Shown here: piece after piece, positions 2,780 through 58,849 of the stretch
How the letters are laid out: each line of letters starts with the position of its first letter
Numbering within the stretch: the stretch's first letter is position 1
Origin: Cetorhinus maximus
Taxonomy: Eukaryota
Length of the DNA: 64,000 nucleotides
Assembly: GCF_964194155.1 (NCBI RefSeq)
Contig: NC_135893.1
Coordinates: 29,140,001-29,204,000, forward strand
Reading direction: 5' to 3'
Made by a program: the position numbers and the translations under genes
The notes under the pieces: model-generated
What the model saw: only the letters and a program-made list of their open reading frames with translations
What the model was told of the DNA's origin: nothing
Databases searched by the model: none

Positions 2780-3200
2780 ATTGGATAGCTTAGTATAAGT
2801 AAGGGACCAATTTGGGGGCTCATCTGACTGAGGTGATAAAATGGTCCAAGGATTCAAGAGGGTTGATGCACAGAAATGGCTTCCTCTGGTGAGGAAATCA
2901 AGAGCGAGAGGACTCAATCTTAAAATTAGAGCTAGATCATTTAAGAGGGAAACCAAGAAGCACCTATCCACACAAAGGGTCATGTAATTCTGGAATTCTC
3001 AAATGGCTGTGGTTGTTGGGACAATTGGACTTTTCAATGAAGAGATTAAAAGATTGATAGATTTTTGGTGCATAATAGATCAAAGGATCTTCAGCTACAG
3101 AGGGCAATTGGAGTTGGGATATAGAACAACCATGATCTAATTGAATAGCGGAGCAGGCTAGAGGGGCTGAATGACCTATTCCTGTTTCTAATTTTCCCAT
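2780..3200 (+). mobile_element. CR1 LINE 3' fragment
   Basis: Degenerate RT C-terminus plus CR1 3' UTR (catgatctaattgaatagcggagcaggctagaggggctgaatgacctattcctg). Confidence 0.8.
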
Positions 3201-3309
3201 GGATCCCTTTACATTTCAATGCCATGATCATTCAACGCACACACTGACTTAAAGAGAAAACAAGCATGCTTCAGTCTAACATGCATAACCATATATTTCT
3301 GGAACAAAC

Positions 3310-4140: not shown

Positions 4141-4284
4141 CTCAACTATAATTGAAGCCTAAAAGAAATGTTGGGACCAAAGAAAGGGGTAAATTTTCAA
4201 CTTGCTACCCCAAAATGGAATTGGAAGCATAAAATTATAAAGATGTATCAATGGATTAAAATGGGGCAAAATGTAACAAGTGGA

Positions 4285-7278
4285 TTTTTTTTTTTTTGAT
4301 GCATTCACGGGATGTGGGCTTCTCTGGCTGGTCCAGCATTTATTGCCCATCCCTAATTGCCCTTGAGAAGATGATGGTGAACTACCTTCTTGAACCACTG
4401 CAGTCCATGTGGTGTAGGTACACCCACAATGCTGTTAGGAAGGGAGTTCCAGGATTTTGACCCAGCGACAGTGAAGGGACAGCGATATATTTCCAAGTTA
4501 GGATGGTGAGTGTCTTGGAGGGGAACTTCCAGATGGTGGTTTTCCCATCTATCTGCTGCCCTTGTCCTTCTAGATGGTAGTGGTCGTGGGTTTGGAAGGT
4601 GCTGTCTAAGGAGCCTTGGTGAATTCCTGCAGTGCATCTTGTAGATGGTACACACTGCTGCTACTGTGCATCAGTGGTGGAGGGAGTGAATGTTTGTGGA
4701 TGTGGTGCCTATCAAGCAGACTGCTTTGACCTGGACAGTGTCCAGCTTCTTCAGTGTTGTAGGAGCTGCACTCATCCAGGCAAGTGGGGAGTATTCCATC
4801 ACACTCCAGCTTGTACCTTGTCGATGGTGGACAGGCTTTGGGAAGTCAGGAGGCGAGTTACTCGTCGCACGATTCCTAGCCTCTGACCTGCTCTTGTAGC
4901 TACAGTATTTATATGGCTAGTCCAGTTCAGTTTCTGGTTAATGGTAACCCCCAGGATGTTGATAGTGGGAGATTCAGTGACAGTAATGCCATTGAACATC
5001 AAGGGGCGATGGTTGGATTCTGTCTTATTGGCGATGGTCATTGCCTGGCACTTGTGTGGCGCAAATGTTACTTGCCACTTGTCAGCCCAAGCCTGGATAT
5101 TATCCAGGTCTTGCTGCATTTGGCCGAGGACTGCTTCAGTATCTGAGGAGTCGTGAATGGTGCTGAACATTGCAATCATCAGCGAACATCCCCACTTCTG
5201 ACCTTATGATGGAAGGAAGGTCATTGAAGAAGCAGCTGAAGATGGCTGGGCCAAGGACACTACCCTGAGGAACTCCTGCAGGAATGCCCTGGAGCTGAGA
5301 TGACTGACTTCCAATAACCACAACCATCTTCCTTTGTGCTAGGTATGACCCCAACCATTGGAGAGTTTTCCCCCTGATTCCCATTAACTCCAGTTTTGCT
5401 AGGGCTTCTTGATGCCACATTCGGTCAAATGCTGCCTTGATGTCAAGGGCAGTCACTCTCACCTCATCTTGGGATTTCAGCTCTTTTGTCCATATTTGAA
5501 CCAAGGCTGTAATGAAGTCAGGAGCTGAGTGGCCCTGGCGGAACCCAAACTGGGCATCAGTGAGCAGGTTATTGCCAAGCAAGTGCCACTTGATAGCCCT
5601 GTTGATGACCCCTTTCATTACTTTACTGAGGATCGAGAGCAGACTGATGGGGCGGTAATTGGCTGGGTTGGATTTGTCCTGCTTTTCGTGTACAGGATAT
5701 ACCTGGGCATTTTTCCACATAGCTGGGTAGATGCCAGTGTTGTAGCTGTACTGGAACAGCTTGGCTAGGGGTGTGGCAAGTTCTGGAGCACAAGTCTTCA
5801 GTACTATTGCCAGAATTTTGTCAGGGCCCATAGTGTTTGCAGTATCCAGTGCCTTCAGCCGTTTCTTGATATCACGTGGAGTGAATCGAATTGGCTGAAG
5901 ACTGGCATCTGTGGTGCTGGGGACCTCCGGAGGAGGCCGAGATGGATCATCCACTCGGCACTACTGACTGAAGATTGTTGTGAATACTTCAGCCTTATCT
6001 TTTGTACTGCTGTGCTGAGCTCCTCCATCATCAAGGATGGGGATATTTATGGAGCCAGTGAGTTGCTTGACTGTCCATCGCCATTCATGACTGGATGTAG
6101 CAGTACTGCAGATCTTAAATTTGATCTGTTGGTTGTGGGATTGCTTAGCTCAGTCTGTCACTTGCTGCTTATGCTGTTTGGCATGCAAGTAGTCCTGTAT
6201 TATAGCTTCACCAGGTTGAACCAGGGTTGATCCCCTGGCTTGATGGTAATGGTAGAGTGGGGGATATGCCGGGCCATGAGGTTACAGATTGTGTTCGAGT
6301 ACAATTCTGCTGCTGATGATGACCCACAGCGCCTCATGGATGCCCAGTCTTGAGTTGCTAGATATGTTCGAAATTTATCCCATTTAGCACGGTGGTAATG
6401 CCACACAACACGATGGAGGGTATCCTCATTGTGAAGGAGGGACTTCGTCTCCACAATGATTGTGCAGTGGTCATGGACAAATACATCTGTGGCAGGCAGG
6501 TTGGTGAGAATCAGGTCAAGTATGTTTTTCCCTCTCTACTTGCCGCAGACCCAGTCTAGCAGCTATGTGCTTTAGGACTTGGCCAGCTCGGTCTGTAATG
6601 GTGATATCGAGCCACCCTTGGTGATGGACATTGAAGTCCCCCACCCAGAGAACATTCTGCACCCTTGCCACCCTCAATGCTTCCTCCAAGTGGTGTTCAA
6701 CATGCAGGAGTACTGATTCATCAGCTGTGGGAGGGCAGTATGTGGTAATCAGCAGGAGGTTTCATTGCCCATGTTTGACCTGAGCCATGCGACTTCATGG
6801 GGCCCAAGTCGATGTTGAGGATTCCCACTGTGCTGCCACCTCTGATGGGCCGACAGGATATACCCAGGGATGGTGATGGTGGTGTCTGGGACATTATCCA
6901 TAATGTATGATTCCGTGAGGATGACTATGTATGTCAGGCTGTTGCTTGACTAGTCTGTGAAATAGCTCTCCCAATTTTGGCACCAGCCTCCAGATGTTAT
7001 TAAGGAGGACTTTGCAGGGTCGATAGGGCTGTGATTGCCATTGTCGTTTCCAGTGCCTAGGTCGATGCTGGGTGGTCTGTCCAGCCTCATTCCTTTTTTG
7101 TGTCTTTGTAGCAGTTTGCTAAACCATTTCAGAGTCAACCACATCACTGTGGTTCCAGATTTTTTTTTTATTGGATTCAAAATCCACCATCTGCTATGGT
7201 GGGATTCGAACCCAGGTCCTCAGAGCATTACCCTGGATTACTAATCCAGCGACAATACCACTACGCCATCGCCTCCCC
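4285..7278 (-). mobile_element. Full-length decayed non-LTR retrotransposon (CR1/L2 group, APE endonuclease + RT) with tRNA-derived 5' head, copy 1
   Basis: APE start (NIWRLVPKLGEL...IVILTESY), RT motifs (NYRPISLL, QFGFR, ALDIKAAFDR, GVPQGSVLGP, FADD) and a poly(A) tail at 4285-4298. A box TGGCGTAGTGG (7268-7258) and B box GGTTCGAATCC (7212-7202). It splits a CR1 fragment (about 4230-4284 and 7279-7440). Confidence 0.9.
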
Positions 7279-9246: not shown

Positions 9247-11899
9247 TAATGATGCAGATCATCGTAACACGTCACAGGGTAATATTGTAGTGAACTATTA
9301 TATTGGAGCACAACATAATGTAATAGGACCAAATATGAGGAGGTGCTGGATGGATTGACTCTGTGTGTCATTGCTGCTTGCTCCCGTTGTTGAAGGTGAT
9401 GTCGTTCCCATGATATTGTTCTTTTTGCCCTTACTTTATATTATATTAATACATTTTAATAGATTACCATACAATTTTTACAGTACCAAACTTATTTCAT
9501 ATGATAATGCATTATGTATAGTTTGATATGACATGATACCACACTGTATTGCGCACTCTGTTTCCTAAATTGATACTTGAACCTTCATCAAATGTAATTC
9601 TTTAAAAACTGGTCTTGCTTGCCATCGAATTTACAGCACAAAAACAGGCGATCGAGTCCGACTCCGTGCTGCTGATTATGCTCCACGTGAGCCTCCTCCC
9701 ACCCTACTTCCTCTCACCCCATCACCATGTCTGTCTAAGTCTAGTGTAAAGTGACCCTGCATTTGCAGTGAGAAAATGGTAAGAGTATAAAAAGCGCTAT
9801 CCTCAGGGTATCATAGTTTCAACATTTAAGCTGGGGTTGTTAAAAGGCCAGGCCCGTAGAGGCATCTGAGATGCTATACCACTGGCAGGGCTCCAGTCCA
9901 ATCTGCATTGCAGTGTTTAACACAGTCCAATTCATAAATCCATGGCATGACTTACATCAGTTCACTGCTATCTTTTCTATTTCTGGAGGCACTGTCTGTA
10001 GAAAACCTTCAGCCTTTTATTTCAAACTGGAAAGCATAAAGCAACAAAATAAACGCTTAATTGTACCTCATCTCAAATCCGGCAAAAACTTATTTTTTGA
10101 GCCAATTCTGTCACTTCCTCACCTCTGTAAGTAAAACCCAAGCTCACCATCACTAAATCGCCACATCTTTACTCCTCCCCTCTCATATTCTTTTCAATCT
10201 CCGTGGTGTCCTGCACTACAACACTCAGCTCATCAGCTCACCTTCCCAATTTAAAGAAGATAAATTGCCCTTGCTTTTAATTACATCGCCATGTTGTTGA
10301 TCATGTCATCTCTTGTATTCTGCTACTTACGGCCTCTTGTTGTGGAGACTCACTCTTGTCCTCTGAGCCAGCTGAACCCTCAGTCTGTGCAACGATCACA
10401 CTCAACAGCACTGAGCTGCACATGCACTGTGAAACATCAATAACCTGGAGCTCAGCATAGTCAGCAACCTTAATACATGGAAAGCAAATTAAAGACCAGC
10501 AGTGTATGAGCTGCCCAGTGTGGTAATGGAATTGGAGTTCAGTCTATTTTAATGCCTGTTGTTCATCCTTTGCACCTATTTTTAGAGGCTTTATTGCTGG
10601 AACAACACTGCACAACCGTAACACGTAATTTCATTACTTTAACCCACTGAAAGTGAAATGTACACTAATCTGTCATTTCTAGGCATTGTACTTTTAGAGA
10701 TTATTTATTCCATTTCTTTCTTGCAAAGGTTTTATTGACTTTTGTATTGAGAATTCAGATTGTTTGTTCTCTTGGGGTTTTTTTTGGTTTGGTTTTGTGT
10801 GATTCTCGCACTTGTGAAGTTGGGATGGTGGGTGGGGGGAGGCTGGAAATGGGGCAATTCCTATTTTAGATACCCCAGGGGGAATCTTCTGACTGGTGCA
10901 ACTGGCTTTGGTTACAGTCTTCCAGCAGCGATGGCTACAAAGGCACCTGCAATAGGGCCACCAGGGACGCTGTAAAAGGGAGGGAAAGGAAGGAGGGGTT
11001 AAAAAGAAGAGAAAAGGAGCAAGTAGATTGTGATGCTCACGCTGTACTGATAGTGACTTTAATTTCACAGCCATGCATATGGGGCTGTGATTTTCCCACT
11101 GACTCCTATCATGAAGTTGAAAGCACGGGGCCATGCGGACTATAACCGTAGAGCTAGCGTGAAGCAAAACCATGCTTGTTGCCACAATTACACCGTCAAT
11201 AGTGCCTGAATCTGAAGTCAGGACTCAGCCTAACACTGGTAAAAAACTGAGTGAGGCTTCCCTCAGGGCATTAACCCCCCTCCCGCCGATTCACTCTCCA
11301 CTCGTTCAGCTTCACATCAATGACAAACCGAGAGAATAGAATCCTAGAATGGTTACAAAACAGAAGGAGGCCATTCAGCCCATTGTTTGTTTATGTCAGT
11401 TCTGTGCGAGAGGAATTCATCTAGTCCCACTCCCTCGCCTTCCAACCCCCTGTCCATAGCCCTGCAAATTTTTCCCCTTTGGATAAAACCTGGATCCACC
11501 TCTTGTGTTTGTGATAATCTTCTGGGATGGGGATATTGTGATGCACAAGGCATTATTGTTGTGTGGGACAGGCTTGATGGAACTGTGGGTCTTTTCCTGC
11601 TCCTCATTGTTTGTAATACATTGTGGTGCAGTTGAGGATCACCACCTGGCCTGTTTTGCACCAGACAATGTACTTTGGGTGGTTTGGGACATCGAGAGAA
11701 CTCTTCACTATTCTCCCTTGGTAGCCATGGGCTGTTTAAGACTCATCTCAGTTTAATGTCTCACTCTAAGTGTTGGGAGTCATAAGTTATAAAAACTTGC
11801 AAATACTGGAGACAGAGGATTAATTTACATTATCCTCTTTGAGAGAAAATGCCCTGAATGAGCTATCTGCTACTGAGCCATCCAATGGGATTCCAATGT

Positions 11900-12846
11900 C
11901 CTAGACCCAACCATCCTCAGCTGCTTCTTCAATGACTTTCCTTCCAACATAAGTGGGGATGTTCGCTGATGATTGCACAATGTTCAGTATCATTCGCAAC
12001 TCCTCAGACACTGAAGCAGTCCATGTCCAATGCAGTAAAAGACCTGAACAATATCCAGGCTTGGGCTGACAAATAGCAAATAACTTCAGTGTCACACAAG
12101 TGCCAGGCAATGACCATCCCCAACAACAGAGAATCTAACCATCGCCCCTTGACATTCAATGCCATTATCATCGCTGAAGCCCCCTCTATCAACATTCTGG
12201 AGGTTGACAGAAACTGAACTGGACTAGCCATATAAATACTCTGACTACAAGAGAAGCTCAGAGGCTGGGAACCCTGCAGCGAGTAACTCGCCCCCTGACT
12301 CCCCAAAGCCTGTCCACCATCTACAAGGCACAAGTCAGGAGTGTGATGGAATTCTCTCCACTTGCCTGGATGAGTGCAGCTCCAATAACACTCAAGAAGC
12401 TTGACACCATCCATGGCAAAGCAGCCCACTTGATTGGACCCCTTCCACAAACATTCACTCCCTCCACCACCAACACACAGTAGCAGCAGTGTGTACCATC
12501 TACAAGATGCACTGCAGCAACTCACCAAAGCTCCTTAGACAACACCTTCCAAACCCACAACTGCTATCATCTAGAAGGACAAGGGCAGCAGCCACATGGG
12601 AACACCACAACCTGGAAGTTCCCCTCCAAGCCACTCACCATCCTGACTTGGAAATATGTTCCTTCACTGCCACTGGGTCAAAATCCTGGAACTCCCTCCC
12701 TAACAGCGCTGTGGGTGTATCTGCAACACATGGACTACAGCAGTTCAAGAAGGCAGCTCACCACCACCTTCTCAAGAGCAATTAGGGATGGGCAATAAAT
12801 GCTGGCCCAGCCAGTGAAATCCACATCCCATCAATGAATAAAAAAA
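11900..12846 (+). mobile_element. 3' fragment of the tRNA-headed LINE family
   Basis: GMFADDCTMFS...YKAQVRSVME...KSWNSLP, ending ccacatcccatcaatgaataaaaaaa. Confidence 0.85.
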
Positions 12847-18528: not shown

Positions 18529-19261
18529 CATTGCAACTATTCTCGTTTCTCTGCACATTGCTGATGATACAGTAGTTATTGCTTCTTTGATCTTCCCTCT
18601 CTTGTCCTTCCTAAGCTTCAAATTCTTAACTCTCCCCTTTCCTTGCATCTTCACTGCAAATTGTGGAATTTTTAAAATATCACTCAGTCGCCCTTTCCTC
18701 CTTATTCTTCTCTGCAAATGACGTAATGAACAGCCTAGGGTTATCAGAAAGCTAATCTTGCTTTTTGTTACCCTTTAGAAAGTGTTCAATGAAATTTCTT
18801 GCTTTAATAACTCCATGTTGACATATTGGGTAGAGTCTTATATCAGTCTCTGACCTGCTTTCGAATTAGTTTTATAATTTAATTGGATGCTCAAAATTTT
18901 AAATGAGAACATGTTAAAACATTTATTGATCCACCACAGGAGAAGGCACCTTCCATGGCTGTTAAATTGACTTGTCAGGTGGTGTATCTGGCAAAATTCA
19001 AATGGTCTTTTATTGCACTGCCTGTTGGCTAAACAGATTTAATTTGCTCCCTCACACTTGCTGCTGTTCGTTATAAACCTCCATGAAGGCCAATGTGTAC
19101 AGTGTTGGAACAAACTGAACTTGAAAACAACAGAGCCAAGAATGTGGTAAATCAAGATGTAGTGCTTAATAGGAAAGAAAGACTTACATTTATATTGTGT
19201 CTTTTATGTCCTCAAAGTGCACCATAGCCAATGAAGAACTTCTAGAATTCAGTCACTTACT

Positions 19262-20030
19262 TTTATTCATTCATTGGATGTGGGTGTCACTGCAAGGCCC
19301 ACATTTATTGCCCATCCCTAAGTGTCCTTGAGAAGGTGGTGGTGAGCTGCCTCCTTGAACCGCTGCTGTCCATGTGGTGTAGGTACACCCATAGTGCTGT
19401 TAGAGAGGGAGTTCCAGAATTTTGATCCAGCGACAGTCAAGGAGTGGTAATGTGGTTCCAAGGTGTGTGACTTGGATGGAAACTTGCAGGTGGTGGTGTT
19501 TGTGGTGGTGTTTCCATGCGCCTACTGTCCTTGTTCTTCTAAATGGTAGAGGTCGCAGGTTTGGAAGGTGCTGTCAAAGCGGCCTTGGTGAGTTGCTGCA
19601 ATGTGTGTTATAGATGGCGCACATTGGTGCCACTGTGCATCGGTGGTGGAGAAGTGCATGTTTAAGATGGTGGATGGGGTGCCAATCAAGTAGACTTGCT
19701 TTGTCCCGAATGGTGTCAAGCTTCTTGAGTGTTTTTGGAGCTGTACTCGTTTAGGCAAGTGGAGAGTATTCCGTCACACTCCTGATTTGTGCCTTGTAGA
19801 TGGTGAACAGGCTTTGGGAAGTCAGGAGGTGAATTACTTGCTGCAGAATTCCTTGCCTCCGACCTGCTCTTACAGACTTAGTATTTATATAGCTGGTCCA
19901 GTTCAGTTGTAGCTCCCAAGATGTTGATGGTGGGGGATTCAGCAATGGGAATGCCATTGAATGTCAATGGATGATGGTTAGATTCTCTCATGTTGGAGAA
20001 GGTCATTGCCCGACACTTGTGTGGCGCTAT
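19262..20030 (-). mobile_element. 3' fragment of the tRNA-headed LINE family, inserted in a minus-strand DeuSINE (about 19170-19260 and 20040-20285)
   Basis: APHKCRAMTFSN...AESPTINILG and IYKAQIRSVTEYSPLA. DeuSINE halves lie on both sides. Confidence 0.85.
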
Positions 20031-20419: not shown

Positions 20420-22800
20420 AATACTGGTTGGGAACACAGGTGGGCCCATAGCAATGAGGTAGGATTAATTAATAACCTCATAGTGAAGGCACCCCTAGGT
20501 GACAGCAATCATACTATGAATTTTACATTCAGTTTGAGGGAGAGAAGAGTGGGTCTAAGACTAATATTTTAAACTTAAAGAAGGGCAATTATGAGGGCAT
20601 GAAAGCAGAGCTAGCTAAAATGAACTGGCAATTTAGATTAAGGGATTGGTCAACAGAGATACAGTGAAAGACATTTAAGGGGATATTTCAGAATGCACAG
20701 AATAGATACATTCCAACAAGAAGGAAAAATTCCAAGGGGAGGACTCACCATCCATGGTTAACTAAAAAAAGTTAAACATAGTATAAAGCTTAAAGAAAAA
20801 GCATATAATTGCACATGGATGGGTGGCAGGTCAGAAGACCGGACAGAATATTAAACAAAAACACCAAAGAATGACTTAAAGATTAATAAGGAGAGAAAAA
20901 TTAGAGAACAAGAGAAAGCTAGCTAGAAATACAAAGAGAGATAGTAAGAGTTTCTATAGATATTTTAAAAAGCAATGAGTTAACAAAGTGAGTGTTGGTC
21001 CTATAGAAAGTGAGTCTGGAGAATTGATAATGGAAAAAAAGGAGATGGCAGATGAATTGAACAGGAATTTTGCAGCAGTCTTCACTATAGAGAATACAAG
21101 TAACATCCCAGAACTAGCTGTAAATCAGGAAATAGAAGGGAGGGAGGAAATCCAAAAAAATTCCAATCATCAGGGAAGTGGTACTGAGAAAATTGTTGGA
21201 GATACGGGCTGACAAGTTGTCGTGTCCTGAAGAACTTCATCCTAGAATCTTAAAAGAAGTGCCTAGTGAGATAGTTGATGCGTTATTTTTAATTTTCCAA
21301 AATTCCTAGATTTGGGGAAGGTTCTATGAGATTGGAAAATAGCAAATATAACTCTGTTATTCAAAAAGGCGGTGGGGGGAGACAGAAAGCTGGAAACTAC
21401 AGGACAGTTAGGTTAACATCTGTCATAGGGAAGTTAGGAGCTATTATTAAAGATGTGATACCGGGCCACTTAGAAAAAATCAAGATAATCAGGCAGAGTC
21501 AACATGGTTTTATGAAAGGGAAATCATGTTTAACCAATTTATTGGAGTTTTTTAAAGAAATAATGTGCTATGGATAAAGGGGGACTGGTGGATGTACTGT
21601 ACTTAAATTTCCAGAAGGCATTTGATAAGGTGCCACATCAAAGGTTATTGTGGAAAATAAAAGCTCATGGTGTAGGGGCTAACATATTGGCATGGATAGA
21701 AGATTGGCTAGCTAACAGGAAACAGAGAGTAGGCATAAATGGGTCATTTTCTGGTTGGCAAGATGTAACAAGTGGTGTGCCACAGGGATCATTGCTGGGG
21801 CCTCAACTTTTTACAATTTATATAAATGACTTGGATGAAGGGACTGAAGGTATGGTTGCCAAATTTGCTGATGACACAAAGATAGGTAGGGAAGTAAGTT
21901 GTGAAGATGATATAAGGAGGCTACAAAAAGATATAGATAGGTCAAGTGAGTGGGCTAAGATCTGGCAAATGGAGTATAATGTCGGCAAATGTGAAATTGT
22001 CCATTTTGGCAGGAAGAATAAAAAAGCAGTATATTATCTAAATGGTGAGAGATTGCATAGCTCTGAGATTCGGAGGGATCTGGGTGTCCTAGTGCATGAA
22101 TCAAAAAAAGACTAGTACGCAGGTACAGCAAGTAATTAGGAAAGCTAATAGAATGTTATCATTTTTTGCGAGGGGAATTGAATACAAAAGTAGGGAGGTT
22201 ATGCTTCAGTTGTAAAGGGCATTAGTGAGGCCATGTTTGGAGCACTATGTATAGTATTAGTCACCTTATTTAAGGAAGGATGTAAATGCGTTGGAAGCAG
22301 TTCAGAGAAGGTTTACTAGACAAATACCTGGAATGGGTGGGCTGTCATATGAGGAAAGGTTGGACAGACTAGGCTTGTATCTGCTGGTGTTTAGAAAGTA
22401 AGAGGCGATTTGATTGAAACATAAGATCCTGAGGGGTCTTGACAGGGTGGATGTGGAGAGGATGTTTCCTCCTGTGGGAGAATCTAGAACTCGGGGGTCA
22501 CTGTTTAAAAATAAGGGGTTGCCCACTTAAGACAGAATGAGGAGAAATTCTTTCTCTCAGAGGGTCGTGAGTCTTTGGAACTCCCTTCTTCAAAAGACGG
22601 TGGAAGCAGAGTCTTTGGATATATTTAAGGCAGAGGTAGATAGATTCCTGATAGGCAAGGGGGTGAAAGGTTTTTGAGGAGAGGCAGGAATGTGGAGTTG
22701 AGGTTACAATCAGGTCAGCCATGACCTTATTGAATGGCGGAGCAGGCTTGAGGGGCCGAGTGGCCTACTCCTGCTCCTAATTCGTTTGTTTGTTCCTATG
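20420..22800 (+). mobile_element. CR1 LINE, 5'-truncated and decayed ORF2
   Basis: GNYRTVRLTSV, SQHGFMKGKSCLTNLLEFF, FQKAFDKVPH, SGVPQGSLLGP, FADDTK, and 3' UTR ggcctactcctgctcct. Confidence 0.95.
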
Positions 22801-24079: not shown

Positions 24080-24445
24080 CAGTAGCAACAGTGTGTACCA
24101 TCTACATCTGCAGGAATTCACCAAGGCTCCTTAGACAGCACCTTCCAAACCCACAACCACTAGAAGGACAAGGGCAGCAGATAGATGGAAACACCACCAC
24201 CTAGAGGTTCCCCTCCAAGTCATTCACCATCCTAACTTGGAACTATATTGCCGTTCCTTCACTGTCGCTGGGTCAAAATCCTGGAACTCCCTTCCTTACA
24301 GCACTGTGGGTGTACCTATACCACATGGACTGCAGCGGTTCAAGAAGGCAGCTCATCACCACCTTCTCAAGGGCAACTAGGTATGGGAAACAAATGCTGG
24401 CCCAGCCAGCGAAGACCAATGAACATCCCGTGAATAAAAAAAAAT
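24080..24445 (+). mobile_element. 3' fragment of the tRNA-headed LINE family
   Basis: Near match to 12480-12845, ending catcccgtgaataaaaaaaaa. Confidence 0.85.
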
Positions 24446-26244: not shown

Positions 26245-26465
26245 AAATCATTCTTGGGACATGTGTGTCACTGGCGAGGCCAACATTTATTGCCCATCCC
26301 AAATTGCCCTTGAGAAGATGGTGGTGAGCCACTGCAGTCCATGTGGTGTAGGTACACCCACAGTGCTGTTAAGGAGGGGATTCTAGGATTTTGACCCAGC
26401 GACAGTGAAGGAACAGCGATATAGTCCCAAGTCAGGATGGTGAGTGGGCTTGGAGGGGAACTCAA
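26245..26465 (-). mobile_element. 3' fragment of the tRNA-headed LINE family
   Basis: Near match to 4310-4530. Confidence 0.8.
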
Positions 26466-27977: not shown

Positions 27978-28626
27978 GGAGGGTGGTGGTGGCAGGGTAG
28001 CATTGTTACTGGACCGGAATAATGCTTCAGGGGCATGAGCTCAAATCTCACCACGGCAGCTGGAAGGAATTTAAATCTATTTTAATCAAATAAATCAATT
28101 ATAAAATGCTAATCTGAGCAACGATAATCATGAAACTACCAGGTTGTCATAAAAACCCATCTGGTTCGCTAATGTCCCTTTAGGAAAATAAATCTGCTGT
28201 CCACCTTGATCTGGCCTACATGTGACTCCAGACCCACTTAAATTGGCCTAGATGGCCACTCAATTCTAAGTGGCTCATCGCCACCTTCTCAAGGGCAATT
28301 AGGGATGGGTAATAAATGCTGGCCTAGACAGTGACACTCACATCCCAATATTGTAAGGTTATATATTGTCTTATGAAGAGGTCTGGAGGCTTGTATGGTT
28401 GAACAATAACTGTTTATTAATAACACATAACTCCATTAATATACACAGGATACAGTCCTGACTATGGGCTATCTTCATGTCAACTTCTACCAGACTCACT
28501 GCTACACTCTACTACTCCTATGTGACTGTCCACATCATAATGTGGGTGGTGCTGTTTCCCCAGTCCCACATTAACCCTTACCATCCCGCACACCCTAATA
28601 TTACACCCAAGAATGAACTTTTAAAA
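27978..28626 (+). mobile_element. SINE (tRNA head + LINE 5' UTR + LINE tail), interrupted by a solo LTR
   Basis: Head tggcagggtagcattgttactgga...gagctcaaatctcaccac, middle aaaaacccatctggttcgctaatgtccctttagg, tail ccaccttctcaagggcaattagggatggg...catcccaa|gaatgaa. Confidence 0.8.
28349..28605 (-). mobile_element. Short solo LTR (Gypsy-like)
   Basis: 5-bp TSD CCCAA (28344-28348, 28606-28610) and right end ...ttaca. Shares the gggttaa(t/c)gtgggactg motif with 53400-53648. Confidence 0.75.
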
Positions 28627-42281: not shown

Positions 42282-45200
42282 AGGATTACAGGTATCCCCG
42301 GGACATACAACGTTCCTCGGATTGCTGTTCCCGTCGCATTCTGAGATCCACACTCAGTGCCATGCGCCGCCATATGAACACACTCGACCTCTCCCTCCAG
42401 CAGCACCGCCGCACCCTTTTTCAAAGCTGCGCGTGCCCCCAGTTTCATTTTATTCTTCGTCTCATCTGACTCCTCAACAAGAAACTTTTTATCTTTCTCT
42501 CAAGTGCTAAGGAACGCAAGCTCCAACAACTCATCGACACCAACACCCATCCAGGACCCTCCACCCCTGCTTGTCCCTCCATCCCCACCCCATCTTCCAA
42601 TCCCAGCCCCGGCCGTGTATTCACTATATCCCCTGACCTTCCCCTCTCCGATGCTGAACGTTCAGTGCTCAGCAAAGGACTTAGTTTCATACCCTTACGC
42701 CCTCATCTCAATGCATTTCGGGCTCGGCACGATGCTGAACTCTTCTTCCGCCGCCTTCGTCTCCGTGCTCACTTCTTTGGGCAGGAGTTCTCTCCCCGTT
42801 CAACGGATCCTTTTACCCACCTCCAATATTCTCCCTCCACCTGGACCCTTCCCTCTGGATTCTTACCTTCTCTTGATCTGTTCATTGAGAACTGTCGGCT
42901 TGACATTAGTCGTCTCAATTTCTCTGCTCCTCTCACCCATTCTAACCTGTCTGTCTCTGAACTTACTGCACTCCGTTCTCTCAGGTCCAACCCTAACATT
43001 GTCATCAAACCCGCTGACAAGGGTAGTGCTGTTGTTGTCTGGCGCACTGACCTCTACCTTGCGGAGGCTGAGCGTCAACTCGCAGACACTTCCTCCTACC
43101 TCTCCCTGGACCATGACCCCACCACTGAACATCAAGCCATTGTTTCCAGGACTTTCACTGACCTCATCTCCTCTGGAGATCTTCCTTCCACAGCTTCCAA
43201 CCTGATAGTCACCCAACCTCGGATGGCATGCATCTACCTCCTACCCAAAATCCACAAACAGGACTGTCCCGGCAGACCGATCGTGTCAGCCTGTTCCTGC
43301 CCCATGGAACTCATTTCTCACTATCTTGACTCCCTTCTCTCTCCCCTTGTCCAGTCCCTTCCCACCTACATCCGTGATTCCTCTGACACCTTACATCACA
43401 TCAACAATTTCCAGTTCCCTGGCCCCAACCGCCTCCTCTTCACCATGGACGTCCAATCCCTTTACACCTCCATCCCCCACCAGGATGGTCTGAGGGCCCT
43501 TAGCTTCTTCCTTGAACAGAGGCCCCAACAATCCCCATCCACCACTACTCTCCGTCTGGCTGAACTTGTTCTCACACTGAACAATTTCTCCTTTAACTCC
43601 TCACACTTCCTCCAAATAAAAGGTGTGGCTATGGGTACCCACATGGGCCCCAGCTATGCCTGTTTCTTTATGGGGTATGTGGAACATTCCTTGTTCCAGG
43701 CCCCCTCCCACAACTCTTTCTCCGGACATCGATGATTACTTCGGTGCTGCTTCATGTTCTCGTCGGGACCTGGAAAAATTTATTAATTTTGCTTCCAATC
43801 TCCACCCCTCCATCATTTTCACATGGTCCATCTCTGACACTTCCCTTCCCTTCCTTGACCTCTCTGTCTAAATTTCTGGTGATAGATTGTCCACCAATAT
43901 CCATTACAAGCCTACCGACTCCCACAGCTACCTTGACAACAGCTCCTCACACCCCGTTTCCTGTAAGGACTCCATCCCATTCTCTCAGTTCCTTCACCTC
44001 CATCGCATCTGATGATGCTACCTTCAAAAACAGTTCCTCTGACATGTCCTCCTTCTTCCTTAACCGAGGTTTTCCACCCACGGTAGTTGACAGGGCCCTC
44101 AACCGTGTCCGGCCCATGTCCTGCGCATCCGCCCTCACGCCTTCTCCTCCCTCCCAGAAACATGATAGGGTCCCCCTTGTCCTCACTTATCACCCCACCA
44201 GCCTCCGCATTCAAAGGATCATCCTCCGCCATTTCTGCCAACTCCAGCATGATGCCACCACCAAACACATCTTCCCTTCACCCCCCCCGGCGGCATTCCA
44301 TAGTGATCGTTCCCTCTGGGACACCCTGGTCCACTCCTCCATCACCCCCTCCTCCTCAACCCCCTCCTATGGCACCTCCCATGTGAACACAAGATATGCA
44401 ACACCTGTGCCTTCACTTCCTCTCTCCTCACCGTCCAAGGGCCCAAACACTCCTTTCAAGTGAAGCAGCATTTCACTTGCACTTCCCTCAACTTAGTCTA
44501 CTGCATTCGTTGCTCCCAATGTAGTTTCCTCTGCATTGGAGAGACCAAACGCAGACTGGATGATTGCTTTGCAGAACACCTTCGGTCTGTCTGCAAGCAT
44601 GACCCAGACCTCCCTGTCGCTTGCCATTTTAACACTCCATCCTGCTCTCTTGCCCACATGTCTGTCCTTGGCTTGCTGCATTCTTCCAGTGAAGCTCAAC
44701 GCAAACTGGAGGAACAGCACCTCATCTTCCGACTAGGCACTTTATAGCCTTCTGGACTGAATATTGAGTTCAACAATTTTAGATCTTGAACTCCCTCCTC
44801 CATCCCCACCCCTTTTCCGTTTCTTCCCCCTCCTTTTGGTTTTTTCCAATAAGTTATATAGATTTTTCTTTTCCCACCTATTTCCATTATTTTTAAATGT
44901 ATTCCACCCATCATTTATCCATACCTTTTATGCCCTTTCAGTCTTATTTCACCCCACCCCCACTAGAGCTATCTGTACCTTGCTTGTCCTGCTATCCACT
45001 CTTAATTAGCACATTCTTTTAGATAATATCACCACCTTCAACACCTCTTTGTTCTTTTGTCTGTGACATCTTTTGGTTATCTCCTCCTATTACTGCTTGC
45101 TTGTCCCAACAACCACCACCGCCCCCCCTTCTCCCCCACCCCCTCCCACCCCTTAAACCAGCTTATATTTCACCCCTCTCCTATTTTTACTTAGTTCTGT

Positions 45201-54513: not shown

Positions 54514-57224
54514 GGGAGGTGCTGGCATTGTGATATTGTCTCTGGTAATCCAGAGACGGAGGGTGATGCGCAGGACCTAGGTTCGAATCCCACCAAGGCA
54601 GATGGTAGAATTTGAATTCAATAAAAATCTGAATTAAAAGACTATTGATTACCATGATCACCATTGTCGATTGTCGTAAAAACCCATCTGGTTTGCTAAT
54701 GCCCTTTAGGAAAGGAAATCTGCTGTCCTCGCCTGGTCTGGCCTACGTGCAACTCCAGATCCGCAGTTGTTGTTGATTCTGAAATGGTCGTCTAGCAAGC
54801 CATTCAGTTGCATCAAACTGCTAAAAAGTTAATAAAAAGGAATGAAACCGGATGGGCCGCCCGGCATCAACCTCAGCACCAGAAACAACAATGGCAAACC
54901 TAGTCCTGTTGACCCATCTGGGCCAATTCAAAATTGGGAGAGGTGTCTCACAGACTAGGCAAGCAGCAGCTTGATATAGTCATACTCATGGAATCATACC
55001 TTACAGATTCAGATACCACCATCACCATCTAGCACAGGGGTATACAGTCGGGAGGGAGTTGCCCTGGGAATTGTCAATATCGACCGGGGCCCCCATGAAA
55101 TCTTGTGGCATTTGGTCAAACATGGGCAAAGAAACCTCCTTCTGATGACCATGGACTGCGCCCCCCACCTCCCACAACCTTCAGCCAATGAATCAGTACT
55201 GGTCAATGTTGGACACCACTTGGAGGAATCACTGAAAGTGGCAAGGACGCAGAATGTACTCAGGGTAGGGGACTTCGATGTCCATCACCAAGAGTGGCTT
55301 GGTAGCACCACCACAGACCAAGCTAGCCGAGTCCTAAAGCTCATAGCAGCTAGATTGGGTTTGCGGCAGGTCATGAGGGAACCAACAAGAGGGAAAAAGA
55401 TATTTGACCTTATCCTCATCAACCTGCCTGCCACAGATGCATCTGTCCATGACAGTATCGGTAAGAGTGACAGCCGCACAGTCCTTATGGAGACAAGGTC
55501 CCATATTCACATTGAGGATACCCTCCATCGTGTTGAGTGGCACTACCATCGTGCTAAATGGGATAGATTTTGTACAGATCTAGCAACTCAAGACTGGGCA
55601 TCCATGAGGCAGTGTGGGTCATCAGCAGCAGCAGCAGAATTGTACTCAACCACAATCTATAACCTCATGGCCCAGCATATCCACCACTCTACCATTACCA
55701 CCAAGGCACAGGATCAGCCCTGGCTCAATGTAGAGTGCAGGAGGGCATGCTAGGAGGAGCACCAGGCATACCTAAACATGAGGTGTCAACCTGGTGAAGC
55801 TATAACACAGGACTACTTGCATGACAAACAGCATAAGCAGCAAGTGATAGACAGAGCTGAGCAATTTCACAGCCAGCAGATCAAATCTGAGTTCTGCAGT
55901 GCTGCCACATCCAGTCGTGAATGGTGGTGGGCAATTAAACAACTCACTGGAGGAGGAGGCTCCACAAATATCCCCATCCTCAATGATGGGGGAGCCCATT
56001 GCATCAGTGCAAAAGATAAGGCTGAAGCATTTGCAACAATCTGCAGCCAGAAGTGCTGAGTGGGCGATTCATGTCTTCTTCCTCCAGTGGTCCCCAGCAT
56101 CATAGATGCCAGTCTTCAGCCAATTTGATTCACCCCACATGATATCACTGGATTTTGAAAAGGCTATGGGCTCTGACAATATTCCGGCAATGGTACTGAA
56201 GACTTGTGCCGTACCCCTAGCCAAGCTGTTCTAGTACAGCTACAAAACTAGCATCTACCCTGCTATGTGGAAAATTGCCCAGGTATGTCCTGTACACAAA
56301 AAGCAGGACAAATCCAACCCAGCCAATTACCACCCCATCAGTCTATTCTCCAGCATCAGGAAAGTGATGGAAGGGGTCATCAACAGTGCTATCAAGCGGC
56401 ACTTGCTTAGCAATAACCTGCGTACTGAAGTTCAGTTTGGGTTCCACCAGGGTCACTCAGCTTCTGAACCCATTACAGTCTTGGTTCAAACATGGAAAAA
56501 AGAGTTGAACTCCAGAAGTGAGGTCAGAATGACTGCCCTTGACATCAAGGCAGCATTTGACTGAATGTGGCATCAAGGATCCCGAGCAAAACTGGAGTCA
56601 ATGGGAATCAGGAAGAAAACTCTCCACTGGTTGGAGTCATACCTAGCACAAAGGAAGATGGTTGTAGTTGTTGGAGGTCAGTCATCTCAGTTCCAGGACA
56701 TCACTGCAGGAGTTCCTCAGGGTAGCACCCTCGGCCCAACCATCTTCAGCTGCTTCATCAATGACCTTGTTTCCATCATGAAGTCAGAAGTGGGGATGTT
56801 CGCTGATGAATGCACAATGTTCAGCACCATTCGCAACCCCTCAGATACTGAAGCAGTCCATGCCCAAATGCAGCAAGACCTGGACAATAAGCAGGCATGG
56901 GCTGACAAGTGGCAAGTAACATTCGCACCACACAAGTGTCAGGCAATGACCATCTCCAACAAGAGAGGATCCAACCATCGCCTCTTGATATTTATTGGCA
57001 TTACCATCGCTGAATCCCCCACTATCCCCCGCTACTTGGGGGTTACCATTGATCAGAAGCTGAACTGGACTAGCCATATAAATACTGTGACTACAAGAGT
57101 AGGTGAGGGGCTGGGAATCCTGCTGTGTGTAACCCACCTCCTGACTCCCCAAAGCCTGTCGACCATCTACAAGCCACAAGTCAGGAGTGTGATGGAATAC
57201 TCTCCCGTAAATGAATTAAAAAAA
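54514..57224 (+). mobile_element. tRNA-headed APE+RT LINE, copy 2 (3' internal deletion), inserted in a minus-strand DeuSINE (about 54360-54513 and 57225-57490)
   Basis: A-box-like tggcattgtga at 54523 and B box GGTTCGAATCC at 54580-54590. APE (VGDFDVHHQEWLGS, DLILIN), RT (ALDIKAAFD, GVPQGSTLGP, FADE) and poly(A) end. Confidence 0.9.
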
Positions 57225-58849
57225 GGTTTCTTTTAGTGATGTTGGTTGAATGATAATTAATAACTAGAACACCAAAAAGAACTCCATTGCTCCTCTTTGA
57301 AATAGTGCCATAGGATCTTTTACACTCAGAGAAAGCTGACAGTGTAGCATCTCATTCAAATGGCTGCACTCCCTCAGAAGTACATTGAGGTGGTAGCATC
57401 GATTTTGTGCTCAGGTCACTGGAGTGCGACCTAAACCCACAAATTTTAACTCAAAAGGAAGTGTGCTGCCCATTGAGGCAGAGCTGAGACCTTGACAAAT
57501 AAGCTTCCTCTTAACCCTAGACATTTCCAAGAAAAGTTTTCATTTATTTATTTACTTGTAATATCTAGCTCTATGTTCATTTTCAGATTCAGGTCAGATA
57601 TCTAATACAGACATAATTCCGGGAAGAGGTTTGCTCAATTTTGTTTATGGTCTGGATTTATTGATAGGCATAAAATGAAGACAGACTCCAGATGGTAAAT
57701 GTTGTAAAGCATTTTTATAGAAAAAAAAACTATTGTCACAGGAGAGAGAATGCAATATCGTGTGAATTGCAATAGAAAGTTCTGGAATTTATACACACTG
57801 AGGATTTACATGGATGGGGGAAAGGGGAAAGAATCAGGCTTGAAGGGATGGGATAAGGGAGCCAGAGCAAAGTGGAACACAGGAAAAGGAGGAGGTCATT
57901 CAGCTCCTTGAGTCTGTTTCATCAATGAATTAGATCATGGTATGAAAACATGTGACTAGGCAGCTTGTGATAAGAAACAATTTGCAATGATGACAATGGA
58001 CATTGCTCATCCCAAGGGAAGAATCGGGCCAATCAATTCAAATACAAACCTCTTTTACAATTTGTTGAAATATATTTTTGATTGGCAGATCCTTTTGTAT
58101 TACTGAGCTATTTTAATTTAGTGGATCCTGTTCACTGTTTGAAGGTATATATTAAACTATCCTTTTTCCAAAGAGAGAGTCTGTTTGGAAGGAGACAGTG
58201 GTTGGAGGCAGATTAAAAGAAATAATTTGCAGTAACATTCACAGAACCATTCCATTTATCTAGCGTCTGGATAGGTGCACACAGGGCATCAAGAAATCCC
58301 ATTTTATTCATTAATTTCTTGTTGGATCTCCTAACCCCTCCACTTCTCTTATCCTAAACCTTTAGCTTATGACCTCTCTGACAACCATTCTCCCCCTACC
58401 TTTCATCGTATATAGTCCCCTATGACCATTTTCTATCCACTCCCCCCACTCATTACTCTTTCCCCTGCATTAATCTCTCAGGAATTAAAGTCCTGTTTTG
58501 CAGTCTCAGTCTTTCAAAGCACTTATCAAGTTAAGACTGTTTTAAGTCAGGCACCCAATATGTGTCATTGAGGGCGACTATTCTGTCTTGTCCTCCTCAT
58601 CAGCCCACGAAAGGAACAGAGTTGCTCATGGCTGTCATCATCATCTGTGATCTGGATCAGTGTCTGTATTTTGCTGTCCTATTGTGTTTATTGCATGGTT
58701 ACACCTGGCACTATGACCTGGTGCCCATTCCCCCACTCTCAGTGGTGGATTTCATTGCAGCCCCTCTCCAGTCTTCCCACCCCACCAGTGCCCTCGTGGA
58801 AGCTGTAGCTTTAGAAAGTGTGTGTGATCTAGGGCACAGTTGTATTCTT

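Follow-up and report, generated by a model that had tools for sequence, protein, structure and literature searches.

Copies of the element in the analysed window

The analysed window was a stretch of 64,000 nt of the Cetorhinus maximus genome (contig NC_135893.1, positions 29,140,001 to 29,204,000), in which several copies of a LINE headed by a tRNA-like sequence were located. Copy 2 (54514..57224, plus strand) comprised the head, a 5′ UTR and a broken ORF for an endonuclease (EN) and reverse transcriptase (RT); approximately 500 nt near the 3′ end were missing, with the ORF joining the terminal tail at ~57203. The A box at 54523..54533 lay 9 nt past the element start and carried three mismatches relative to the A box of other copies, and the B box at 54580..54590 read GGTTCGAATCC. 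Downstream, the ATG at 54784..54786 (~element position +280), which is in frame with the endonuclease in the family, was followed in copy 2 by a TAG at the fourth codon, and a second ATG at 54842..54844 (+335) opened an upstream ORF of 35 codons that runs over the endonuclease start in a different frame. The coding remnants were an endonuclease-region piece at 54980..55753 (PF14529, E 2e-5, under the Pfam cut-off) and an RT piece at 56565..57236 (PF00078), all of these features being on the plus strand.

Copy 1 (4286..7277, minus strand) extended from head to A-tail, its tRNA-like head at 7192-7272 being called by ARAGORN as tRNA-Thr (AGT), with the A box at 7258-7268 and the B box at 7202-7212 on the same strand. 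The remaining members were three 5′-truncated copies at 11897..12846 (plus), 19261..20027 (minus) and 24080..24444 (plus), a 3′-end fragment at 26249..26462 (minus) and a SINE at 27985..28350 (plus) carrying the LINE head and 5′ UTR (~nt 1-316) together with its last ~75 nt.

A preliminary description of the window had noted a scarcity of TTTT (T4) on the sense strand of the element, and a recount returned the same figures: exactly two in copy 2 (55568..55571 and 56153..56156, plus strand), one in copy 1 (7179-7182, minus strand, AAAA on the plus strand) and none in the three truncated copies; four further plus-strand AAAA runs near copy 1, at 4212-4271, fall outside the element. Copy 1 did carry more than ten sense A4 runs, as stated there (14 of A4 or longer, one being the tail), and copy 2 carried 16. 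The sense T4 runs were, as described, not common to the window copies; that at 55568 falls on a TTTCG site that is a recurrent hot spot of CpG decay, and that at 56153 is private to copy 2. The CR1 LINE at 20420..22800 (plus), used as the original control, was indeed rich in sense T4 (13 runs), but with a T content of 25.7% against ~21-22% it makes a poor control by itself. Taken together, five window pieces held 3 T4 over 7,769 nt, where base composition predicts 13.2 (Poisson P 0.0009). For single copies the signal was weaker: copy 2 had one in-frame T4 where shuffles gave 4.0 (P 0.047), and copy 1 had one where they gave 2.8 (P 0.15).

Anatomy and sampling of the family

To collect the family, the 4.0-Gb genome was searched with the 5′ 787 nt of the LINE and 40 of the 14,790 candidates were scored. 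From this search 39 loci were taken, eight rearranged loci were dropped and the remaining 31 were aligned with both window copies, giving 33 copies that differed from the column-commonest letter by 5.5-11%. The element is 3.2-3.3 kb long and consists, from 5′ to 3′, of the tRNA-like head, a 5′ UTR of ~280-420 nt, a single EN + RT ORF (PF14529, PF00078), a short 3′ UTR, AATAAA and an A-tail; no ORF1 was present in the aligned copies. The encoded protein would be about 950 aa, and in one locus (L082) a natural frame of 751 aa covered endonuclease and RT together. Dispersed copies shared the 3′ end and were variably truncated at the 5′ end, and the tail motif had 28,034 exact matches, LINE and SINE counted together. 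The family is abundant, now decayed and protein-coding.

In an RT tree built without named clade references (L2, Crack, Daphne etc.), the LINE joined three proteins (P0001-P0003) and a metagenomic sequence, L280, with support of 95/86, and lay apart from both CR1 families of the same genome rather than grouping with CR1. The paired domains, the common 3′ end with variable 5′ truncation and the selection on the ORF are those of an APE-type non-LTR retrotransposon. SINEs are given as non-coding elements of 100-700 nt (PMC10886601), a description that a 3.2-3.3 kb element with a selected ORF does not fit. The tree of copies was nearly star-like, and variants with TAG or GAG near the start were not separated into clades. 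No target-site duplications longer than 6 nt were found in 36 loci, a rough result as some 5′ anchors were misplaced. Searches of Rfam matched no relevant family, and the ESM Atlas returned generic RT/EN clusters only.

Depletion of T-runs on the sense strand

The column-commonest letters of the 33 copies (3,318 columns) contained no T4, so that the family has no conserved run of four or more Ts, and only six T3. The corresponding numbers of runs of four and three were 15 and 48 for A, 11 and 50 for C and 9 and 41 for G. Windows of 5 nt with four identical letters numbered two for T, against 40, 41 and 30 for the other bases.

Codon-level depletion was assessed over 922 codon columns from 70 loci using synonymous-codon shuffles that keep protein and codon usage. 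The expectation that T4 would be rarer than in such shuffles was borne out in part. T4 alone was borderline, with none in the ORF against 2.3+-1.3 (P 0.064-0.075), or against 3.4 when third positions were taken as neutral (P 0.017). The wider set of T4 or TVTTT gave a strong result, with none against 4.3+-1.7 (P 0.003), the A-mirror of the same set numbering 18 against 17.8. A further strong result concerned T3, of which the ORF had four, all being the Phe codon TTT, against 12.3+-2.4 in shuffles; across codon junctions there were no runs of T3 or longer against 8.3+-2.4 (0/600 shuffles). The A, C and G runs agreed with the shuffle nulls. Dinucleotide shuffles, which take up some of the signal, gave P 0.02 for T3 and P 0.17 for T4.

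The codon-usage check proposed in the preliminary description gave TTT:TTC at 4:14, and the other two-fold NNT:NNC pairs, at 69:110, were also biased. The T content of the LINE was 20%, and Phe made up 2.0% of the protein, compared with 3.0-5.8% in 13 related proteins. No depletion was seen for pyrimidine tracts, YnAG or AATAAA, and avoidance of splice sites or polyA signals was rejected as a cause on that ground. The family-level depletion of T-runs is real and statistically robust, and it is confined to T and the sense strand.

Origin of T4 in individual copies and selection on the ORF

Individual copies had on average 1.3 T4 runs, with eight of the 33 having none. Of the 42 runs, 13 fell on a single column, the TTTCG site subject to CpG decay, where the TG frequency was 0.39, in the upper range among 73 CpG sites; nearly all others were singletons. 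The commonest TTTT in the copies thus arises by CpG decay after insertion.

Variants present in 15% or more of copies were treated as shared. Shared variants accounted for 40 of 1,748 possible synonymous changes and 24 of 5,583 possible non-synonymous changes, whereas singletons were equal in the two classes (26.5% vs 26.7%). As shared variants were mostly synonymous and singletons neutral, the source elements were coding and their copies decay freely, and the ORF was under purifying selection in the source elements. Changes creating T3 after insertion occurred at a per-copy rate close to that of other changes to T, so mutation bias was rejected as the cause of the lack of T-runs. Among shared variants, none of the 190 possible T3-making changes was seen against ~2.2 expected, a difference that is not significant.

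Comparison with other retroelements

No depletion was found in four other retroelement families of the same genome. For CR1-A (18 loci, T 22.6%), T3 numbered 24 against 23.8 in shuffles and T4 eight against 7.7. A Penelope copy, a 1,303-aa Tx1/L1-like copy and an RTE-type family (29 loci) were likewise undepleted, the observed/shuffled ratio across all four being 0.8-1.3 for T3 and T4. The Penelope and Tx1/L1-like copies have an equal or stronger C-ending codon bias, yet no depletion. The Penelope-like family (window 42378-44747, L131-L159) is young, with many open frames of ~924 aa and copies often in close tandem or inverted groups. The family that we take to be Tx1/L1-like (L160-L189) is very young, has open frames of 1,303 aa and often lies in tandem arrays ~7.3 kb apart.

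Among metagenomic relatives, 26 were found and 10 examined, yielding nine usable ORFs. For the comparison with headless relatives suggested in the preliminary description, seven of these nine had no T3 depletion and two had partial depletion. The seven include L280, the only member of the sister group with DNA (T3 20 vs 20.1, T4 5 vs 5.3), which is not proven headless because its 5′ end is missing. L291 had one T4 against 3.7 (P 0.065) with normal T3. The two exceptions, both distant LINEs, were partly depleted: L281 had six junction T3 against 19.5 and three T4 against 9.3, and L283 had five against 11.6 and three against 7.2. Each thus keeps three T4 runs in its ORF, and no B box was visible upstream of either. 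These two sequences are the main caution against regarding T-run depletion as specific to Pol III. The L281 metagenome contig also encodes an NPGP motif before the endonuclease, presumably 2A-like.

5′ end and translation start

The family head has an A box at +10 and a B box at +74, a tRNA-like spacing. Across 68 copies, 24 started within 1 nt of one G, with a modal start of -1 to +1, and no conserved sequence was found upstream of the start. ARAGORN called a tRNA head in copy 1 and in two of 30 further loci, and folding of one head was no better than that of shuffles (z -0.68).

A second set of 29 loci (27 distinct) was picked by protein domain, ignoring the head. All 12 distinct copies of this set that reach 5′ of the endonuclease enter the LINE 5′ UTR, and seven of them reach the tRNA part; save for a tandem repeat, no alternative shared 5′ end was present among the 27. 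The tandem repeat, of period ~33 nt, is common to the flanks of the truncated copies L072/L083, L081, L084 and L128.

Upstream of the +280 ATG, whose frame is that of the endonuclease, there are nine AUGs, and AATAAA occurs at +114. Following the +280 ATG, codons 3 and 9 were both open in 18 of the 68 copies and a stop stood at one of them in 46, in a set for which 30 loci had been chosen for an open codon 3; among the 42 readable copies not so chosen, 26 had TAG. The 35-codon ORF from +335 had five synonymous and six non-synonymous shared variants and no stops in the overlap, against two synonymous, seven non-synonymous and two stops for the endonuclease frame in the same stretch, and it therefore looks the more conserved of the two frames. 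This pattern hints at frameshifting or re-initiation. Given the nine AUGs, the stops after the +280 ATG and the apparently better-kept +335 ORF, re-initiation, read-through or frameshifting is likely. Translation is the weak point of the Pol III account set out below.

3′ end and the derived SINE

The element ends in AATAAA fused to the A-tail, which also fits Pol II polyadenylation. Runs of four or more Ts preceded the tail in 15 of 72 LINE-tagged ends, against a background of 14% before runs of A7 or longer. A hand count of the 100 tails listed first gave a bimodal distribution (9 with no T, 68 with T1, 3 with T2-3 and 20 with T4+). Tails ranged from T1An to T10A3 at similar total length with a gap at T2-3, and the T-run sometimes began inside the A-run. 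The 3′ T-runs (T1-T10) looked like a self-terminator but were not counted as support, because they are only modestly above background and T elongation in short, old A-tails, as published for SINEs (PMC8466645), may explain them.

The SINE of ~400 nt is a fusion of LINE nt 1-316 with nt 3145-3220, most of 30 loci sharing one junction, and it carries the ATG-GCC-TAG of the LINE. Its copies (27985-28350 in the window and L221-L249) had no T4 and a median divergence of 13%, against 5.5-11% from the column-commonest letters for the LINE, and look slightly older. The SINE may be a deletion form of the LINE or may have been captured by it. The head and SINE may resemble LF-SINE.

Transcription of the source elements

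Pol III normally makes short non-coding RNAs, and runs of T stop it. The family has the sequence features expected of a type-2 Pol III unit, namely A and B boxes at tRNA-like spacing, a putative start just upstream of the A box and no internal T4 or TVTTT. The tRNA-like promoter at the start, combined with a coding strand without T-runs, makes transcription by Pol III likely, and the source copies were probably autonomous elements transcribed in this way, with a sense strand purged of T-runs. For the reading in full, that this is a vertebrate autonomous retrotransposon whose 3.3-kb mRNA is made by Pol III from a tRNA-type internal promoter, whose ORF has been recoded to lose every Pol III terminator, whose translation is cap-free and whose SINE arose from it by deletion, we estimate a probability of roughly 0.6.

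Under this Pol III account, TFIIIC would bind both boxes of the head, and Pol III would start ~10 nt before the A box, the start of Alu being taken as 12 nt before it (PMC4333407), and would have to read through ~3.3 kb. A source copy gaining TTTT, TVTTT or a run one step away from these would yield a short RNA and leave fewer descendants; the targets of this selection would have been synonymous codon junctions and probably Phe content as well. Such an RNA would lack a cap, as has precedent for a LINE RNA in R2 (PMC3414825), and its translation would be cap-independent or by re-initiation. The A-tailed 3′ end would be where the protein begins to copy it. The SINE of this genome combines the same head with the same tail.

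TTTT and TVTTT are described as minimal terminators in HeLa tests of SINEs, with TTT alone weak (PMC8466645), and the termination rules of shark Pol III were assumed from mammals. Because TTT alone terminates weakly in those tests, the near-total avoidance of junction TTT exceeds the known rule and may have another cause; possible reasons are weak termination that accumulates along 3 kb and the keeping of a distance from T4. Four contig sets guessed to be RNA span the whole element; they carry no readable strand, start or polymerase and were not counted.

The earlier proposal that the coding sequence was selected for Pol III read-through is partly upheld. Selection against sense T-runs is supported by the shuffles, by the specificity for T and the sense strand, by the in-genome controls and by the rejection of mutation bias. 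Read-through by Pol III would be the best explanation of the depletion, tempered by the two of nine ORFs that are partly depleted without a visible head.

The most serious competitor is a Pol II-transcribed LINE whose 5′ UTR is a captured SINE and which avoids U-runs for some other reason at the RNA level, such as pairing with the A-tail, slippage of RT or ribosome, decay or sensing of U-rich RNA, or self-cleavage by the endonuclease. The partial depletion of L281 and L283 without an upstream B box, the L1-like end of AATAAA plus A-tail and the slightly greater age of the SINE, which fits its capture, all favour this explanation, as do reviews that give LINEs as Pol II-transcribed and Pol III as length-limiting (PMC10886601, PMC5786205). 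However, it leaves unexplained why such avoidance is missing from four other retroelement families in this genome, why copies start where the A box predicts and why the known terminators are among the depleted motifs. The AATAAA at +114 and the nine upstream AUGs are also ill-suited to a capped Pol II mRNA, and on balance we consider a Pol II origin rather unlikely.

It is much less probable that the headed copies were non-autonomous Pol III passengers, in effect a giant SINE, moved by an unseen headless Pol II source. A stop lies within nine codons of the in-frame ATG in most copies and is common to copies and SINE, as a passenger would allow, but the domain-picked copies offered no alternative 5′ end, the shared variants of the ORF were mostly synonymous, and T-runs were avoided at the synonymous junctions of an ORF under selection. 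Finally, a by-product of T-poor, C-ending codon bias and protein sequence, plus chance, is scarcely credible and already largely refuted by the codon shuffles: T is low, C is favoured in the other NNC:NNT pairs as well and T4 alone is borderline, yet 8.3 junction T3 were still expected with protein and codon usage kept, the other bases were normal, and the Penelope and Tx1/L1-like elements were equally or more C-biased and undepleted.

Relation to known elements

With respect to the Pol III account, the closest likeness is to tRNA-derived SINEs (SINE2, among them B2, Dip and Ves of the T+ type), which are described as having an A/B-box head with a start just upstream of the A box; they also lack an internal T4, end in AATAAA and an A-tail and have T-runs that lengthen in short, old A-tails (PMC8466645). 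The LINE differs from SINE2 in being 3.3 kb long with an EN-RT ORF under purifying selection, and in having no 3′ terminator fixed in most copies. SacSINE1/LmeSINE1 and L2-2_CM provide a cartilaginous-fish example of a tRNA-headed SINE of ~400-460 nt sharing its tail with a LINE. As described there, SacSINE1 shares only the tail with L2-2_CM (PMC5499810), whereas the present SINE has the whole 5′ module of the LINE, a comparison made by description only.

RTE, Vingi and Ingi are alike in having a single EN-RT ORF, no ORF1 and internally deleted derivatives in which the two ends are joined. These elements and their bipartite forms are treated in the source consulted as Pol II-transcribed, with a tRNA head on the SINE only (PMC5786205); in the present family it is the coding element that bears the head, and its RT and the RTE-type sequence do not group together. 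Vertebrate CR1 shares APE and RT domains, abundant 5′-truncated copies and the lack of a clear target-site duplication, and differs from the LINE, which has an A-tail and a tRNA head, lacks ORF1 and places its RT elsewhere in the tree. No autonomous Pol III-headed LINE, and no case of a LINE ORF avoiding terminators, was described in the titles and abstracts searched; Repbase or Dfam may already list the family under some name that carries no Pol III interpretation.

The rule stated in reviews is that a LINE is a Pol II mRNA and a SINE a short Pol III RNA, its length limited by Pol III (PMC10886601, PMC5786205). A protein of ~950 aa encoded in a terminator-free Pol III transcript would, if true, break this rule and erase the boundary between the two classes. 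The element would then be a natural protein-coding gene of Pol III and a model for the cap-independent translation of Pol III RNA, and it would offer a direct route from LINE to SINE, or for the capture of a SINE promoter by a LINE. Avoidance of terminators at codon junctions would also provide a way to recognise, from sequence, coding elements transcribed by Pol III in other genomes.

Pieces of the LINE ORF with 54-72% identity were also found inside seven predicted proteins (P0004, P0015, P0023, P0024, P0029, P0030 and P0035) from the genera Heptranchias, Mobula, Pristiophorus and Heterodontus, where they are probably mis-predicted exons. Their presence in four genera indicates a distribution of the family across sharks and rays.
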